DNA from: a virus
Taxonomy: Duplodnaviria > Heunggongvirae > Uroviricota > Caudoviricetes
Virus record (IMG/VR): IMGVR_UViG_2711768023_000001
Reading direction: 5' to 3' (one strand)
DNA: 7,965 nucleotides
Positions 1 to 7,965 of the stretch are shown in pieces. The stretch's first letter is position 1, and every line of letters begins with the position of its first letter. A program made the position numbers and the translations under genes. The notes below the pieces were generated by a model, which was not told where the DNA came from, made no database searches, and saw nothing but the letters and a program-made list of their open reading frames with translations.

Positions 1-86
1 CTCCAATGACTAGTCTAAAAACTAGTATTAAGACTATCACTTATTTAAGTGATACTGGTTGTCTGGAGATTCAGGGGGCCAGTCTA
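1..86 (-). mobile_element. IS2 left end (IRL and adjacent sequence), partial; the element continues beyond the left edge of the window
   Basis: Reverse complement of 1..86 matches, from memory, the first ~86 nt of IS2 (TAGACTGGCCCCCTGAATCTCCAGACAACCA.TATCACTTAAATAAGTGATAGTCTTAATACTAGTTTTTAGACTAGTCATTGGAG), with the terminal TAGACTGGCC at 77..86. All three forward frames contain stops. Recalled sequence, not searched. Confidence 0.8.
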
Positions 87-109
87 GTAAGGCTGCGAGA
101 GGTGAATAA
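87..109 (+). pseudogene. 3' remnant of a class-II holin (pinholin S21-like) gene truncated by the IS2 insertion
   Basis: Frame 2 reads ...K-A-A-R-G-E-stop (aag gct gcg aga ggt gaa TAA, 89..109), matching the recalled C-terminus of phage 21 pinholin (...RRKAARGE). The TAA overlaps the endolysin ATG (TAATG), as in lambdoid S-R junctions. Upstream of position 87 the sequence is IS2, not holin. Confidence 0.5.
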
Positions 110-482
110 TGTCGCCATCATTACGCAAGGCTGTTGCAGTTGCTATTGGTGGCGGGGCTGTTGCTATAGCATCTGTGTTAATCACTGGCCCAGGTGGTAA
201 CGATGGTCTGGAAGGTGTCAGCTACATACTATACAAAGATATCATTGGTGTATGGACTGTATGTCACGGACACACCGGAAAAGACATCATGCCTGGTAAA
301 ACGTATACCGAAGCAGAATGCAAAGCTCTCCTGAATAAAGACCTTGCCACTGTCGCCAGACAAATTAACCCGTACATCAAAGTCGATATACCGGAAACAA
401 CGCGCGGCGCTCTTTACTCGTTCGTTTACAACGTGGGCGCTGGCAATTTCAGAACATCGACGCTTCTTCGCAAAATAAACCA
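109..482 (+). CDS. R: SAR endolysin (phage 21 R-like lysozyme, T4-lysozyme/GH24 fold), 3' end hidden in the N gap
   Basis: ATG 109 with GAGAGG Shine-Dalgarno ~7 nt upstream. N-terminal Gly/Ala-rich weakly hydrophobic segment ([21 protein letters not shown]) typical of a signal-anchor-release domain, followed by the Glu/Asp/Thr catalytic context (GLEG..YKD..VWT). Near-identical over 125 residues to recalled phage 21 R / E. coli prophage lysozymes. The ORF runs into the N run at 483. Confidence 0.9.
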
Positions 483-933: not shown

Positions 934-1116
934 AAATGCCCTGTGCCATCCTCAGCCGAAACCTCCAGCGCCTCCGGCATGGGCAATGATGCCACCGTCG
1001 AACTCTCTCCAGTTGCTGGACGAAACGTTCTCGGTATCCGGGACGGAATCATCAGCGACCAGACAGCATTGAGAATGCTTCAGGAGTACATCAGGATCCA
1101 ATGCCTTGGGGGGTAG
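934..1116 (+). CDS. Rz: i-spanin (Rz-like), C-terminal part only; 5' end in the gap
   Basis: Open frame emerging from the gap and ending at TAG 1114..1116. The C-terminus (...LQEYIRIQCLGG) has a Cys near the end, like lambda Rz (...YINEQCR). Sits immediately downstream of the endolysin and contains a nested +1-frame proline-rich ORF. Confidence 0.6.
   Translation, partial: KCPVPSSAETSSASGMGNDATVELSPVAGRNVLGIRDGIISDQTALRMLQEYIRIQCLGG
935..1072 (+). CDS. Rz1: o-spanin (Rz1-like lipoprotein), nested in the +1 frame of Rz; 5' end (signal peptide) in the gap
   Basis: The +1 frame reads ..ALC-HPQPKPPAPPAWAMMPPSNSLQLLDETFSVSGTESSATRQH, stop TGA 1070..1072. Pro-rich with a PPAPPAW motif like lambda Rz1 (PPPPPAW). 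The Cys at 944..946 is a plausible lipobox Cys. Confidence 0.6.
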   Translation, partial: NALCHPQPKPPAPPAWAMMPPSNSLQLLDETFSVSGTESSATRQH

Positions 1117-1204
1117 CGGTAATTTTACTCATTATCCTTCAAATCAGATTCTGTTGTCAGAGGAATGGGGGAAGCTGGATTCGCAAGAGCTTTTTATGGG
1201 CAGT

Positions 1205-1714
1205 TTAGCTAAAAAAAGGCAACACGAAGCTAAAACTACCAACATAAAGTGCTGACCAGCTAGCAGCTGAAATCAGACTCACTGTATACACTTTCACTGG
1301 ATGAAGTTGCAACATTCCTGCCACCAAAGGAGCAATATAACGCAGCACGGCGATAAAGCGCGAAGTGAAAAGTATTGACACAGAGTTATTTTGCAACTGA
1401 AGGCGAACCCGTTCTATTGTATTGGAACGGCTTGATATTATACATGCAAGTTGAGGGATATGCCCAATTATTATACCAAGATGGTAATTAACGATAGTAC
1501 CGCACCATGCGCCACTCATGACCGTGATTCCAGCTTCCCATGGTGAAAGAGTCGTCTTGCTGACTGTAATTACAGTGGCCATCATAATTGATGCTGGTGG
1601 CAATATCGCCGAAATGAGTAAAGTGGATTTTGTGAACGCTATTATAAAAAGAAGCCCCCATAGGCGATATGGATGAAGTACAAAATAGTTCATCAAAGCA
1701 TTTATCCACTCCAT
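1205..1714 (-). CDS. DedA/YqaA-family-like polytopic inner-membrane protein (moron, function unknown)
   Basis: 510-nt ORF on the complement strand. ATG is the complement of 1712..1714, preceded by an AGGAA Shine-Dalgarno; the track's first codon is a TTG at 1715..1717. Stop TAA is the complement of 1205..1207. The protein is mostly hydrophobic with several predicted transmembrane helices and resembles recalled E. coli YqaA (P..S..PW...T.G...G..N..LG ... LRY). The region is visibly AT-rich relative to flanking phage genes. Confidence 0.7.
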   Translation of the reverse strand: MEWINALMNYFVLHPYRLWGLLFIIAFTKSTLLISAILPPASIMMATVITVSKTTLSPWEAGITVMSGAWCGTIVNYHLGIIIGHIPQLACIISSRSNTIERVRLQLQNNSVSILFTSRFIAVLRYIAPLVAGMLQLHPVKVYTVSLISAASWSALYVGSFSFVLPFFS

Positions 1715-1767
1715 CAATGTCTTTCCTTCTGTGAATTTTTCTTTGCTATTTAACCGTGATACGACTT

Positions 1768-1797
1768 AATTTAGGCTTAAACACCTTACATTTACAA
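1768..1797 (-). promoter_or_regulatory. Putative sigma70-type promoter for the moron gene
   Basis: On the complement strand: TTGTAA (complement of 1792..1797), 18-nt spacer, TAAATT (complement of 1768..1773), about 55 nt upstream of the moron ATG. Weak match by eye, no experimental support. Confidence 0.2.
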
Positions 1798-1911
1798 GGT
1801 ACTCCTGTGGGGGGCCCTGCCACGGAGCGTCGCAGGAGTGAGTGATGAGGAAGAATTAAAGCAACCTATTGTGACAGGCAGCGATAACAGTAAATCACAG
1901 GAAGCATAATC

Positions 1912-2676
1912 ATGGCAAAACCGGACTGGGAGGCCATCGAATCGGCATACCGGGCCGGAGTCCTTAGCCTCCGTGATATAGGCGAGAAATACGGCGTTAC
2001 AGAAGGGGCTATCAGGAAGAGGGCCAAAAAGCTTGGTTGGGCACGCAGTGGCGGTACGCAGGTTTGCAAAAATGGTACGCAAAAAAGGAAAGTGCGTACC
2101 AGCAGAAAGCCTGCCATTACTGGCCTTACACAAAAAAGTACGCAACTAAAAACAGAATCTACACCGGATACGAAACCGATACGCGGAATGCGTACCGATC
2201 CCCCGACTAACCCATTCCAACCCGGTAACCAGCAGGCATTAAAACACGGTGGTTATGCCCGTCGCCTTCTGCTCAAAGATGAGGTGATAGAGGACGCTAA
2301 AGCGTTGACGCTCGAGGACGAATTATTTCGCCTTCGTGCTAACAACCTTGTCGCTGCAGAGAATATTGGTCGGTGGTTGGTGTCGCTGGAAGATGCTAAT
2401 GGGGACCAGGAAAGGAAGATGCTGATTGAAAATATCAGCGCCGCCGAGAAAGCAATGATGCGCAATACAGTTCGTATTGAGTCCATCGTTGGCACGCTTG
2501 CGACGGTAGGAAAAATATTTGCTGATACAGCCTACCGCAAGGCCGCCACTGATAAGGTGTCTCTGGAGGCTGATCGTCTTCGCCGTGATGCAGGTATTGA
2601 TGATGGCAATGGAGAGCGTGACCTCAATGACTTCTACTCTGACATCCAAACCGACGCTGAATCCGGCTTTACGTAG
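1912..2676 (+). CDS. Terminase small subunit (HTH-containing)
   Basis: ATG 1912 with AGGAAG Shine-Dalgarno 8 nt upstream. N-terminal helix-turn-helix-like segment (LSLRDIGEKYGVTEGAIRKRAKKLGW), basic central region, acidic C-terminus. Lies immediately upstream of, and overlaps, the large terminase gene. Stop TAG 2674..2676. Confidence 0.8.
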   Translation: MAKPDWEAIESAYRAGVLSLRDIGEKYGVTEGAIRKRAKKLGWARSGGTQVCKNGTQKRKVRTSRKPAITGLTQKSTQLKTESTPDTKPIRGMRTDPPTNPFQPGNQQALKHGGYARRLLLKDEVIEDAKALTLEDELFRLRANNLVAAENIGRWLVSLEDANGDQERKMLIENISAAEKAMMRNTVRIESIVGTLATVGKIFADTAYRKAATDKVSLEADRLRRDAGIDDGNGERDLNDFYSDIQTDAESGFT

Positions 2677-4030
2677 TTTCTGGACTATGCGGGCACGTAA
2701 CAAAGTGCTTTATGGTGGTCGGTCATCGTCAAAATCATGGGATGCCGCTGGCATTGCCATATTTCTGTCGAATAAATACACCCTGCGTTTTTGTTGTGCC
2801 CGTCAGATCCAGAATAAAATCGAAGAGTCGGTGTATACCCTGCTCAAAATTCAGATAGACAGGTTTGGTCTGCGGCACCGTTTCCGTATTCTGAACAACA
2901 AAATCATTAACCGGGTTACTGGCTCGGAATTTGTTTTTTATGGATTATGGCGCAACATCGAAGAAATTAAGTCACTGGAGGGGATCGATGTGTTGTGGCT
3001 GGAAGAAGCCCACGCACTGACGGAATACCAGTGGAAAATTCTGGAGCCAACGATCCGTAAAGAGGGTTCGGAATGCTGGTTCATATTCAACCCCGGACTT
3101 GTTACTGATTTCGTCTGGCGCAACTTCGTTGTTGATCCGCCCGAAGGCACTCTCATCCGCAAAATTAACTATGACGAAAATCCGTTTCTGTCTGACACCA
3201 TGCTTAAGGTTATCGACGCGGCGCGACGCCGTGATCCGGATGGTTTTAAACATGTGTATGAGGGCGTTCCGGAGTCTGATGATGATGCGGCAATCATCAA
3301 ACTGTCTTGGATAGAAGCCGCAGTGGATGCGCACAAAACGTTAAATTTCGAACCCAGTGGAAGAAAGCGTATTGGCTTTGACGTGGCTGACAGTGGTACA
3401 GATAAGTGCGCTAACGTTTACCGTCACGGATCCGTTGTTTTCTGGGCCGACGAATGGAAGGCCAAAGAAGATGAATTACTGAAGAGCTGCCAGCGTACTT
3501 ATCAGGCGGCGCTGGAGCGTGAAGCAGATATTGTTTACGACTCTATCGGTGTTGGTGCGTCTGCCGGTGCTAAATTCTCTGAAATTAACGCTGACCGGAA
3601 GAGCGAGAACGCATACGCGCGACGTGTGAATTACCAGAGGTTTAACGCCGGTGCTGGTGTGCATGAGCCAGATGACGAGTACAACGGCATCCCCAACAAA
3701 GACTTTTTCGCAAATCTTAAGGCTCAGGCATGGTGGCTGGTGGCTGACCGTTTCAGAAATACGTTTAACGCCATTAACAACGGAGAACAGTATCCTGTGG
3801 ATGAGCTGATCAGCATAGATTCTCGTTGTCCGTTGCTTGAAAAGCTGAAACTGGAACTGACAACACCTCATCGTGATTTCGACCGTAACGGACGTGTGAT
3901 GGTCGAAAGTAAAAAAGACCTCGCAAAACGCGAGATACCGTCACCAAACGTTGCTGATGCATTCATTATGGCCTTCGCGCCAATCGATACATCGCTGGAT
4001 ATCTGGGAACAGCTGGGGAGACAGGCCTGA
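2627..4030 (+). CDS. Terminase large subunit (PBSX/Terminase_6-like ATPase-nuclease)
   Basis: The ORF is open from 2519. The most plausible start is ATG 2627 (MTSTLTSKPTLNPALRSFW...) with GGAG 12 nt upstream, overlapping the TerS 3' end; alternative ATGs are at 2600, 2603 and 2609. P-loop YGGRSSSKSW, Walker-B-like DVLWLEEAH, C-terminal nuclease-domain acidic motifs (IGFDVADSG.., ..VADAFIMAFA). Stop TGA 4028..4030. Confidence 0.9.
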   Translation: MTSTLTSKPTLNPALRSFWTMRARNKVLYGGRSSSKSWDAAGIAIFLSNKYTLRFCCARQIQNKIEESVYTLLKIQIDRFGLRHRFRILNNKIINRVTGSEFVFYGLWRNIEEIKSLEGIDVLWLEEAHALTEYQWKILEPTIRKEGSECWFIFNPGLVTDFVWRNFVVDPPEGTLIRKINYDENPFLSDTMLKVIDAARRRDPDGFKHVYEGVPESDDDAAIIKLSWIEAAVDAHKTLNFEPSGRKRIGFDVADSGTDKCANVYRHGSVVFWADEWKAKEDELLKSCQRTYQAALEREADIVYDSIGVGASAGAKFSEINADRKSENAYARRVNYQRFNAGAGVHEPDDEYNGIPNKDFFANLKAQAWWLVADRFRNTFNAINNGEQYPVDELISIDSRCPLLEKLKLELTTPHRDFDRNGRVMVESKKDLAKREIPSPNVADAFIMAFAPIDTSLDIWEQLGRQA

Positions 4031-5496
4031 TGGCACGAAACAAACAAGCCCTGCGGCGAACTGTGCAGGCCACAGCTGATGGTTATGAGAATTTTATTGC
4101 CCGCGTAGGGATGCAGACACCTAACCAGCACTCAGCATCCACCTACCGGGCTAATTTCACCAGTCGTAACCGCATGCTGGTGGAATGGTCCTATCGTTCA
4201 TCCTAGATCATCGGCGAAGCAGTCGATGCTATCCCGGATGATATGACCCGCAAAGGCATTCGCATCACTTCGGAAATTGATGCAAAAGATCGTGGCATTC
4301 TCGAATCACAACTGGATGAGTTGCAAATCTGGGATGCGCTGAATGACGTGCTGAAATGGTCGCGCCTCTACGGCGGCGCGGTGGGTTTCATCATGATTGA
4401 GGGGTAGGCACCAATGACCCCGCTGCGACCCGAAACCATCGGTAAGGGCAAGTTTAAGGGGATTCTCCCGCTCGACCGCTGGATGGTCGACCCGGCACTG
4501 ACCCGCCGCATTAAAGATATGGGGCCGGACCTGGGTAAACCTGAGTTTTACGATGTGGTGACCACAGCAACGGGAATTCCTGCCTGGCGCATTCATCACA
4601 GTCGCCTGATTCGCTTTGATGGCGTCACGTTGCCATTTCAGCAGAAGATGACCGAGAACGAATGGGGAATGTCGGTTGTAGAGCGTATCTGGGATCGTCT
4701 TACCGCGTTCGACAGCGCTACTGTCGGCGCGGCGCAGCTGGTCTACAAGGCGCATTTGCGTACCTACAGCGTGGAGAAGCTACGCGAGCTTATCGCACTT
4801 GGTGGTCCTGCGTATGAAGCGTTGCTGAAGAATATCGACCTGATTCGACAGTTCCAGAGTAATGAAGGCATGACGCTCATGGACTCGCGGGATAAGTTTG
4901 AAACCCATCAGTACAGCTTCAGTGGTCTGGATGACATCCTTTCGCAGTTTGTAGAACAGATTAGTGGCGCTGTTGGTATCCCACTGGTGCGGTTGTTCGG
5001 ACAGTCCCCGAAAGGATTTTCTACCGGTGATGCAGACCTTGCCAACTATTACGATCGCATCAGTTCGTTGCAGGAGAGGCGTTTACGTCTTCCGGTGCGG
5101 CGGATACTGGACATCATGCATCGTTCGGAACTTGGCAAGCCGCTGCCGGACGATTTCACGTTTGAGTTTAACCCGCTCTGGCAAATGTCTGATGTCGATC
5201 GCTCAACGGTGGCGTTAAACACCACCAACGCAATCAGTACGGCGCTGGGTGATGGTCTGATGACACTGAAAGCCGCTATGACTGATTTGCGAGAAAATTC
5301 TGACGTAACCGGCATCGGGGCATCCATTACCGACGAGGACATCGAGAATGCCGAAGATGAAGCGCCGCCCGGCATCGGCGAACCTGATGACGAACCGCAG
5401 GAGCCGTCAGGCGGAAATCCGGTATCGAACCAGCCTACGCAGGATAGCGAGGGCGGTCGGAGACATCGTAAATGGTCGCTACGATGGTTCAAATGA
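4030..5496 (+). pseudogene. Portal protein gene interrupted by two in-frame amber (TAG) codons
   Basis: ATG 4030 overlaps the TerL stop (TGATG) with GGGGAG 9 nt upstream. A single frame runs 4030..5496 (486 sense codons) except for TAG at 4204..4206 and 4405..4407. The peptides on both sides read as one continuous portal N-terminal region (..YRANFTSRNRMLVEWSYRSS*IIGEAVDAIPDDMTRKG.. and ..RLYGGAVGFIMIEG*APMTPLRPETIGKG..). The longest uninterrupted part is 4414..5496 (360 aa). Acidic C-terminal tail; stop TGA 5494..5496. Confidence 0.8.
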
Positions 5497-6130
5497 CAGT
5501 ATCACGGAAATTATTGCGGCGCTGGAGCGTTACAGTGAAATCATCACCCCCTGGGCGACAAAGGTCGCGGAAAACTTTACTGCGGACCTAACCCGGCAGA
5601 ACGAGAAAGTTTGGCGGCAACACAGCAAGAACATCAGTCGCGAGCTCCGCAATCTTGTGGAAAGCGCTCCTGTGGGCCAGGTGATGCAATCCATCATCGC
5701 CGAACAGGTCAAGTACATCAAATCTCTGCCTCTCGAGGCCGCAGACAGGGTGTACGACATCCAGAACAAAGCGATAGAGGCTGTTGTCACCGGTGGTCGG
5801 GCGGAGCAGTTTGCTAAAGAGATTGCATCTACCGGCGATGTTGCTAAGTCTAGGGCCGATCTGATTGCCCGAACGGAACTGGGAAGAGCAACGGGCGCGC
5901 TGGATATGGCCCGAGCGATAGCTATTGGCTCGGATGGTTATATTTGGCGTACAGCCGATGATGGCGATGTCCGAGATTCCCACGATCACATGAAAGGTAA
6001 ATTCGTCCGCTGGGATTCACCTCCAACTTTGGACGGCATGACCGGCCACGCGGGCGAGCTGCCAAACTGCCGCTGCTATAAAGAGATCGTGTTTGTTCGC
6101 GTTCCATTCGCAATGAAAAGGGCAGCATAA
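5348..6130 (+). CDS. Head morphogenesis protein (phage Mu F-like / SPP1 gp7 family minor head protein)
   Basis: Carries the hallmark C-terminal motif of the Mu-F family (YIWRTADDGDVRDSHDHMKGK....GHAGELPNCRCY). ATG 5348 has a GAGGA Shine-Dalgarno 9 nt upstream; alternative in-frame ATGs at 5357 and 5387. Overlaps the portal 3' end by 149 nt. Stop TAA 6128..6130. Confidence 0.8.
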   Translation: MPKMKRRPASANLMTNRRSRQAEIRYRTSLRRIARAVGDIVNGRYDGSNDSITEIIAALERYSEIITPWATKVAENFTADLTRQNEKVWRQHSKNISRELRNLVESAPVGQVMQSIIAEQVKYIKSLPLEAADRVYDIQNKAIEAVVTGGRAEQFAKEIASTGDVAKSRADLIARTELGRATGALDMARAIAIGSDGYIWRTADDGDVRDSHDHMKGKFVRWDSPPTLDGMTGHAGELPNCRCYKEIVFVRVPFAMKRAA

Positions 6131-6133
6131 CCC

Positions 6134-7354
6134 ATGAAATACTTTTTTGAGACCAGGCTCGGGGAAACCCGATACCGCCTGGCTGACGGCTCGTTGCTGT
6201 GCAAAGACGTGCCGATAGGACGAACAGGTAAGCAGCTCTATGGTGCTGATGACCTGCCAAAACTGAAACCCGATAAGTTCGGTGAAATAGTCGTCACGCG
6301 TTCTCCTGAGCAGGTATTCCATCCGGCCACGCTTGCCTCATTCGAAGGGATGAGCATCACGATCCTGCATCCTGAAGATGAAAACGGGAATGTGCGGCTG
6401 GTAAATCCCGAGAACTGGAAAGAGCTTGCTGTCGGGCACCTCCAGAATGTCCGGCGCGGGACGGGTGAGCAGTCTGATTTGATGCTGGCTGACCTTATCG
6501 TCAAAGACGAAAGCGCCATTCAGCTTATCGAAGATGGCCTGCGCGAAGTGTCGTGCGGCTATGACGCGGAGTACGAGCAGACCGAGCCAGGTAAAGCCGA
6601 GCAGGTCGATATTACCGGAAACCATGTGGCTCTTGTCCCTAAAGGCAGAGCCGGAAATCGTTGTGCAATTGGAGACAGAGACACAATGGCAAATCAAAAG
6701 AAAAACTGGTGGAACCGCATGCGTGCGGCCATCAAGACAGGAGATGCCGACACCATGAACGAACTGGTGGAGTCGGCTCCCGCATCGGTTACAGGAGATG
6801 AGGGGGATTTGCCGCAGGGCGTTAATCTCAACATCAACCTGTCCCCGCAGCAACCACTACCGGACAAAGCACCAGAGATGGGCGGAGATCCAACCGGCGA
6901 CAGTGATGATGACCTCAAAACATTACTGAAAGCCCTGCTGGCTAAGCTGGAAAGAAATGCCACGGGCGATAACGATAATAAGCCTGACGATAATCCGACC
7001 GGTGACGGCGAGGACGATGAAGAGGAAACCACGATTACTGGTGACTCAGCCTGGCGTGCCGAAGTTATCGTTCCGGGTATCGATCTGAGCCGTAAGATGA
7101 AACCGACCGCGTTCAAACGCGAGGTTCTGGCTTCTGCTGACAAAACGCTGGTTCGCCAGATAGTCGGTGATGCGGATATCCGCAAATTACCGAAACAATC
7201 GGTCGACATGGCGTTTAATGCCGTGTCTGAGGTTGCCAAAGGGCGAAACACCCGCGCCACCACCGGCGATGCACAGCGCCTAAACATGGGCATGACCAGT
7301 ATCGCTTCCCTGAACAAACAAAACGCTGAATTCTGGGCAAACCGTAAAGGGTAA
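6134..7354 (+). CDS. Phage head-assembly protein, DUF2213-like N-terminal domain with an acidic TGD-repeat scaffold-like region
   Basis: ATG 6134 sits 3 nt after the upstream stop, with a purine-rich AAAAGGG 11 nt upstream. The N-terminal ~180 aa (MKYFFETRLGETRYRLADGS..HPEDENG..) resembles recalled DUF2213 phage proteins. The middle is acidic low-complexity with repeated TGD motifs; the C-terminus is more basic and helical. Position between the Mu-F gene and downstream structural genes fits a scaffold/protease role. Stop TAA 7352..7354. Confidence 0.7.
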   Translation: MKYFFETRLGETRYRLADGSLLCKDVPIGRTGKQLYGADDLPKLKPDKFGEIVVTRSPEQVFHPATLASFEGMSITILHPEDENGNVRLVNPENWKELAVGHLQNVRRGTGEQSDLMLADLIVKDESAIQLIEDGLREVSCGYDAEYEQTEPGKAEQVDITGNHVALVPKGRAGNRCAIGDRDTMANQKKNWWNRMRAAIKTGDADTMNELVESAPASVTGDEGDLPQGVNLNINLSPQQPLPDKAPEMGGDPTGDSDDDLKTLLKALLAKLERNATGDNDNKPDDNPTGDGEDDEEETTITGDSAWRAEVIVPGIDLSRKMKPTAFKREVLASADKTLVRQIVGDADIRKLPKQSVDMAFNAVSEVAKGRNTRATTGDAQRLNMGMTSIASLNKQNAEFWANRKG

Positions 7355-7357
7355 AAA

Positions 7358-7864
7358 ATGAATAATGTATTTCTGTACCGGATGCCTGTTGGCATTGCCG
7401 GGGCTGTCTCTCGCCCGCAGGACTTAACCGTCGAACCGGTGGTCCTTAAATCCGATAACGCCTTCGCTGCCTATGGCCTGGCTGGTAAATACGATGATGA
7501 CGGTTTTTTCGTGCCGCTGGCAGATGGTGATACCGCAGACAAGGTGAAGGGGATCTACGTGCGCCCTTATCCGACCACGTCGCAGCCGGACATGGTTCGC
7601 CAGGTGGGAACAGGCAAGAACTTCCCGGGCGACGCCATGAAGCGTGGCTACGTGACCGTTAATCTCGGTTCTGATTTTGATGCCAGCACTATCAAAAAAG
7701 GCGATCCGGTATACGTTGTCGTCTCCACTGATGAATCCATCAAAGTGCCGCTGGGTGGATTCATGTCCACGTCAGTCAGTGGCAAAAACGTGGTGCTGAC
7801 CAACGCTGAATTCACAGGTGCCGGTGATGCTGACGGCAATGCAGAAATTTCCTGGAAGATTTAA
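7358..7864 (+). CDS. Hypothetical phage structural protein (possibly a head cement/decoration-type protein)
   Basis: ATG 7358 with AAAGGG Shine-Dalgarno 7-9 nt upstream, tightly packed 3 nt after the preceding gene. 168 aa, Gly/Asp-rich. No motif I can assign confidently; the role is inferred only from position in the head module. Confidence 0.6.
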   Translation: MNNVFLYRMPVGIAGAVSRPQDLTVEPVVLKSDNAFAAYGLAGKYDDDGFFVPLADGDTADKVKGIYVRPYPTTSQPDMVRQVGTGKNFPGDAMKRGYVTVNLGSDFDASTIKKGDPVYVVVSTDESIKVPLGGFMSTSVSGKNVVLTNAEFTGAGDADGNAEISWKI

Positions 7865-7879
7865 GGAACAGACGAATGA

Positions 7880-7965
7880 GGTGATGCTGCCAACTTACTG
7901 ATTTAGTGTATGATGGTGTTTTTGAGGTGCTCCAGTGGCTTCTGTTTCTATCAGCTGTCCCTCCT
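7880..7965 (+). mobile_element. IS1 left end (IRL plus start of insA), partial; the element continues beyond the right edge of the window
   Basis: 7880..7965 matches, from memory, the first ~86 nt of IS1 (GGTGATGCTGCCAACTTACTGATTTAGTGTATGATGGTGTTTTTGAGGTGCTCCAGTGGCTTCTGTTTCTATCAGCTGTCCCTCCT). Recalled sequence, not searched. Confidence 0.85.
7935..7965 (+). CDS. insA: IS1 InsA (transposition repressor), 5' fragment only
   Basis: GTG 7935 followed by GCT TCT GTT TCT ATC AGC TGT CCC TCC (ASVSISCPS), the recalled N-terminus of IS1 InsA. Truncated by the window edge. Confidence 0.6.
   Translation, partial: MASVSISCPS

Follow-up and report, generated by a model that had tools for sequence, protein, structure and literature searches.

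The window, by which is meant the whole stretch of 7,965 nucleotides that was analysed, carries phage lysis, terminase, portal and head genes, and its head genes give way to an insertion sequence at the right-hand end. Insertion sequences in fact bound the window on both sides. The features needed to read the right-hand end, together with two that lie further to the left, are as follows.

Positions 1 to 86, minus strand: terminus of a further insertion sequence, taken to be IS2, by which a class II holin gene is interrupted 22 nt short of its stop codon.
Positions 4030 to 5496, plus strand: portal gene (PF06381) with two amber codons, as judged against the intact 488-aa portal of NZ_CP065613.1.
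Positions 7358 to 7864, plus strand: gene for a 168-aa cement or minor capsid protein (Gp24-like), from the list of open reading frames and Pfam; the last intact head gene before the junction.
Positions 7863 to 7867, plus strand: AAGGA, a Shine-Dalgarno-like motif that belongs to the capsid gene, lies 8 nt ahead of the ATG and overlaps the TAA stop of the previous gene.
Positions 7876 to 7884, plus strand: remnant of the major capsid gene, with the ATG and the first base of codon 2 (7876-7879) fused to IS1.
Positions 7880 to 7965, plus strand: left end of IS1, with the left inverted repeat (IRL) at 7880-7902 and the GTG start of insA at 7935; the window stops inside the element.

The 168-aa protein matches PF23982 (XM1_gp53_minor_capsid, E=4.4e-30) and PF22758 (Phage_cement, E=2.8e-21) in Pfam, and in relatives it is annotated as 'structural cement protein Gp24'. 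By direct reading, the 3' end of the window runs ...TGGAAGATTTAAGGAACAGACGAATGA and then GGTGATGCTGCCAACTTACTGATTTAG..., such that the TAA stop of the 168-aa gene at 7862-7864 is followed by an ATG at 7876-7878, a single A at 7879, and IS1 from 7880 onward (GGTGATGCTGCCAACTTACTGAT..., or GGTGATGCTGCC...). The coordinates that the first-pass annotation gave for the AAGGA, the ATG and the start of IS1 are therefore exact. It had also expected a major capsid gene to follow the 168-aa gene, and this is borne out by intact relatives, in which the ATG is the true start of a PF09950 gene. In the closest record, NZ_CP065613.1 (99.9% identical), a 313-aa 'DUF2184 domain-containing protein' is annotated as starting from the ATG equivalent to window position 7876; its gene reads ATG ATT ACT TTT GAT CAG..., and the protein matches PF09950 (Major_capside) with E=6.8e-88. 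The bases that precede this start are those of the window. Because the same ribosome-binding site and ATG begin the 313-aa protein in the intact relative, the interrupted reading frame can be identified as the PF09950 gene. Only 4 nt of it are left in the window, and the leftover frame that is fused to IS1 is ATG AGG TGA, or Met-Arg-stop.

The same upstream bases are normal for this capsid gene, since 87 of the 88 IMG/VR loci whose capsid 5' end is intact have them, a count that takes in one locus starting within the 30-nt context; the 88th has one different base, further upstream. When positions 6900-7965 were compared by megablast with 5,426 complete E. coli genomes, 335 of them matched window 6900-7879 and none matched further, with 'DUF2213', 'structural cement protein Gp24' and 'DUF2184' as the features under the matches. 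The best matches cover 92% of the query and stop at 7879, so that no record among the 5,426 genomes spans the junction. Homology to seven phage records, again by megablast, likewise stops at 7879. The exact junction has no match in the GTDB species-representative genomes, where Shigella is presumably folded into E. coli.

The part of the insertion sequence inside the window, 7880-7965, matches the IS1 that is annotated in phage P1 at 86 of 86 positions (E about 5e-37), and other IS1 copies likewise. At that E value the match to the P1 element is no chance match, and the name IS1 that the first-pass annotation gave to the element is correct. Positions 7880-7902 agree base for base with the annotated P1 feature 'terminal IR of IS1', and the portion of insA inside the window is its first 31 nt only (7935-7965). 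Given that the window stops 86 bases into IS1, the far junction was read from complete chromosomes. A look-up of the 168-aa protein gave ten genomic places. Five of them (loci L002, L003, L005, L008 and L010), all complete chromosomes, match window 1-482 and 934-7965; three are free of mismatches and the other two have one each. At least two of the five are Shigella sonnei, namely L005 (HE616528.1, S. sonnei 53G) and L010 (CP019689.1 3473361-3493867, S. sonnei 75/02).

In all five loci IS1 is complete at 768 bp and identical to the P1 element at 757 of 768 positions, and the right inverted repeat (IRR), GGTAATGACTCCAACTTATTGAT, is found at its far end. Pfam identifies InsA (PF03811 and PF12759) and InsB' (PF03400) in each, and the A6C frameshift motif AAAAAAC lies at IS1 position 307. 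In its inverted repeats, its length, its insA and insB' genes and its frameshift site, the element is thus like the IS1 of E. coli, Shigella and phage P1. Unlike a simply inserted IS1, the copy here lacks an 8-9 bp target-site duplication: the 9-mers that flank it in the five loci, GACGAATGA on the left and AACAGGGGG on the right, are unrelated. A duplication resembling GACGAATGA had been predicted for the far side and is absent. The missing duplication speaks against simple insertion, not against the identity of the element as IS1.

Past the far end of IS1, all five chromosomes read AACAGGGGGATTTACCATG..., a flank that can also be written AACAGGGGGATTTACC-ATG... or AACAGGGGGATTTACCATGCTTATTGG.... 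IS1 ends 16 nt upstream of a truncated DNA-invertase gene. The 43-aa reading frame that follows IS1 is an N-terminal stump of a serine recombinase or DNA invertase, with a PF00239 match at E=4e-4 that lies below Pfam's own cut-off. Beyond the stump the gene order in all five is chromosomal: pgl, ybhD, ybhJ and ybhC. The continuation of the capsid gene (TTACTTTTGATCAGG...) is not present after IS1 in any of the five complete chromosomes. The first-pass annotation had looked for a structural gene to continue past the far IS1 end; in the five chromosomes the invertase stump and pgl stand there instead, the very outcome that it had named as refuting its reading.

What IS1 has replaced becomes apparent by comparison with NZ_CP065613.1 (L012; FDAARGOS_944), which served as the intact reference and in which the prophage occupies the corresponding place in the chromosome. 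Although its label is E. coli, the record carries ipaH and is therefore Shigella-like. The left flank of the L005 locus aligns with L012 1-986 and the right flank with L012 20062-22666, on the same strand and in the same order. Between them, the 768-bp IS1 stands for 19,075 bp of the intact prophage (NZ_CP065613.1 4309986-4329060), the ancestral state being taken from another lineage, that of FDAARGOS_944. The five chromosomes give an identical result for the replaced interval. The missing stretch begins at the second base of codon 2 of the capsid gene and ends 16 nt upstream of the truncated invertase gene that adjoins pgl. In L012 the proximal part of this interval holds the genes for capsid, head completion, neck, a sheath-like protein (DUF3383), a tube-like protein (DUF3277), a tail assembly chaperone and a lytic transglycosylase, and the distal part holds baseplate, spike and tail-fibre genes and ipaHb, after which come the same truncated invertase stump and pgl. 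The tape-measure gene is also among those lost with the 19,075-bp interval. The ipaHb gene, for a T3SS effector, lies at L012 17761-19587, between the tail-fibre genes and the invertase stump.

Taken together, these comparisons indicate that the window is very probably the proximal half, with lysis, terminase, portal and head genes, of a defective SEN34-like myovirus prophage of S. sonnei, in which an IS1-bounded deletion of 19,075 bp removed everything from the capsid gene onward. The deletion is favored because the two IS1 flanks are collinear with, and in the same orientation as, the intact prophage. A single insertion sequence stands in place of one contiguous segment, with flanks collinear with an undeleted reference, as is characteristic of an IS-bounded deletion. 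A gene split by an insertion sequence would have one of its parts on either side, whereas the right flank here is the 5' region of the invertase gene. The capsid gene thus appears, from the aligned sequences, to be deleted rather than split. The proposal that IS1 splits the downstream gene was correct in that IS1 lies right after the capsid start, but the body of the gene is gone with the rest of the replaced interval, and the IS1 event is a far larger lesion than had been supposed.

Three other explanations of the junction were weighed. Simple insertion of IS1 into codon 2 of the capsid gene would leave the remainder of that gene, along with the tail operon, beyond IS1, with an 8-9 bp duplication. 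The left junction does resemble an ordinary insertion junction, and the window stops inside IS1, so that the far side falls outside it. Nevertheless, simple insertion is highly unlikely, since an invertase remnant and pgl follow IS1 with no duplication in five of five complete chromosomes, since the join of IS1 to the capsid continuation is absent from IMG/VR and from the complete E. coli genomes, and since the upstream sequence is normal in the 88 fetched loci with a capsid 5' end. None of those 88 IMG/VR loci has a simple IS1 insertion at the capsid site. A false join of the head genes to the pgl region, by collapse of a 768-bp repeat during assembly, must be considered because IS1 is highly repeated in Shigella and such repeats break or mis-join short-read assemblies. 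An assembly artefact of this kind is extremely unlikely, however, given that the same two junctions occur in five independently assembled complete chromosomes and that the left junction, of the Gp24 gene with IS1, is also found in four IMG/VR contigs.

A discordant right flank is found in one draft contig from IMG/VR, L014 (IMGVR_UViG_2671180338_000008, 1-2343), and can be cited in favor of either a mis-assembly or a genuine rearrangement. The left junction of this contig is the same, but its right flank is different: an unrelated region with a hypothetical gene and IS3-family transposases, and no capsid continuation. The contig may reflect a strain-specific, IS1-mediated rearrangement or may be a chimeric draft; unless it is chimeric, the right flank varies among strains. 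That IS1 is joined to an unrelated region in this one isolate would fit the idea that recombination between IS1 copies, by inversion or translocation, moved the distal half of the prophage elsewhere. Many IS-mediated rearrangements are described for Shigella genomes (PMC8072062), and S. sonnei 75/02 has five phage-associated chromosomal copies of ipaH (PMC5447701). Even so, inversion or translocation is very unlikely. Both IS1 flanks are collinear and in the same orientation, whereas an inversion would put a foreign or inverted segment at the right, and on this ground inversion was rejected. In addition, among the matches listed, the four IMG genomes with the IS1 junction contribute no IMG/VR contig in which the capsid 5' end is intact.

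The junctions on both sides of IS1, the collinearity with the intact reference and the lack of a target duplication are direct observations, and two routes to the deletion seem about equally likely from them. By one route, IS1 would have inserted at one of the junctions, and an adjacent deletion would then have followed by intramolecular replicative transposition into a nearby target. By the other, two directly oriented copies of IS1, one at each junction, would have recombined and looped out the intervening DNA. The two routes are equally placed because no intermediate was found: neither the 5,426 complete genomes of E. coli nor IMG/VR yielded a precursor with IS1 at one of the junctions or at both. 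Synthetic queries that join the right end of IS1 to the invertase flank, or to the capsid continuation, found no place covering at least 80% of the query in the 5,426 genomes. Similarly, IMG/VR has 0 matches to a pattern of the IS1 right end, 0-12 nt and the capsid continuation, and 0 matches to a pattern of a duplicated invertase site followed by the IS1 left end.

A copy of an insertion sequence that lacks target duplications is commonly put down to an adjacent deletion or to recombination between two copies of the element (PMC11708052). No insertion sequence is more abundant in Shigella than IS1, which makes up 46-73% of the IS insertions in reference genomes and is linked to deletions; IS-mediated deletion is counted among the main causes of gene loss in the genus (PMC7373316). 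The absence of a duplication at this locus is attributed to the same cause, in that the copy marks a deletion and not a fresh insertion. With its lone IS copy, collinear flanks and missing duplication, the locus is like the IS-associated deletions that have been catalogued in E. coli and Shigella (PMC11708052, PMC7373316). It does not differ from them in kind; specific to the S. sonnei remnant is the interval, which spans 19,075 bp between capsid codon 2 and the 5' flank of the invertase gene.

A second full-length IS1 lies at L005 13888-14655, about 2.6 kb past the first, in inverted orientation and with 2 nt different. The 2,822 bp that it replaces begin at codon 6 of ybhH, take in ybhI and end within the 5' end of ybhJ. 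Here, too, there is no target duplication, so that this neighbourhood has undergone IS1-associated deletion more than once. Between the two IS1 copies lie the invertase stump, pgl and ybhD.

The other lesions lie in the portal gene and at the left-hand end of the window. The two amber codons of the portal gene are at 4204-4206, where TGG is changed to TAG (W59), and at 4405-4407, where CAG is changed to TAG (Q126 in the intact relative). They make up two of only eight substitutions that separate 6,946 nt of the window prophage from NZ_CP065613.1. In the gene calls of L005 and L010, the portal is accordingly found as fragments of 58, 54 and 360 aa. At the left-hand end, homology to the intact relative begins at window position 87, 22 nt ahead of the holin stop, and loci that match the window have an IS3-family transposase (PF01527, PF00665 and related families) among their gene calls immediately upstream. 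The name IS2 for positions 1-86 comes from the end sequence, which is read as that of IS2, and from an 'IS3-like element IS2 family transposase' that a related prophage has in its terminase region. Several independent lesions have therefore made the prophage defective: the IS2 that cuts the holin gene, the two portal ambers and the IS1 event. The first-pass annotation had counted at least three independent inactivating events, and the holin, portal and IS1 lesions all stand, except that the portal has two ambers and not one.

In the order of its terminase, portal (PF06381), MuF, DUF2213 (PF09979), cement protein and PF09950 capsid genes, the prophage is like the SEN34-like, E217/Pam3-type myovirus prophages of Enterobacteriaceae. 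Its head genes are 98.6% identical to those of Escherichia phage vB_EcoM-606R2 and 81% identical to those of Salmonella phage SEN34. Unlike SEN34-like prophages, the copy in the window is without the capsid gene and all that follows, and it has IS2 in the holin gene and two ambers in the portal gene. The L010 locus falls within the PHAST region 75/02pp10 of S. sonnei 75/02, which has been listed as 'Intact' with SEN34 as its homologue (PMC5447701). That label is contradicted by the locus, in which the capsid gene and all of the tail genes are missing and the portal gene is nonsense-mutated. With Met-Arg-stop as the sole remnant of the capsid frame and the distal genes lost, no virions are to be expected from the element. 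As read from its sequence, the prophage would be irreversibly defective, given that its capsid gene is the stump of a 19-kb deletion, whereas a pseudogene merely split by an IS could be repaired by precise excision.

The result corrects the annotation of the locus and has little significance beyond that. It also illustrates that an IS junction lying at the limit of the sequence in hand should be accepted as a simple insertion only after both its far flank and any target duplication have been checked. Decay of this kind is already known, being typical of IS-mediated prophage and genome decay in Shigella, and the loci are in public annotated genomes. The locus is therefore one more example of the well-documented, IS1-driven reduction of Shigella genomes, here with an ipaH copy lost relative to an S. 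flexneri-like prophage. It is very improbable that loss of the distal half and the ipaH E3 ligase was a fixed, possibly selected and S. sonnei-defining event rather than neutral decay. If the loss had been selected, then the chromosomal effector repertoire would have been trimmed and the remaining lysis, terminase and head genes locked in. Together with the neighbouring second IS1 deletion (ybhH-ybhI), such an event would have reshaped the pgl region.

Two further observations concern the window and its surroundings. Positions 483-933 are a run of 451 N that masks the end of a lysozyme gene and the start of an Rz-like lysis gene; in identical genomes the true sequence under the run is 408 nt (L005 3169-3576). 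A 335-aa 'ORF' at 109-1116 is an artefact of this masking, and the idea that 483-933 is a divergent or inserted segment was rejected, since it consists of masked N only. On the far side of IS1, L005 11291-13887 and L012 20062-22658, which span the invertase stump, pgl and ybhD, are about 98.5% identical, and 37 of the 38 mismatches in this flank lie beyond the stump reading frame. Because the prophage DNA diverges less than the adjoining chromosome, the comparison suggests that the prophage may be younger than the split of the host lineages, or may have been exchanged between them.
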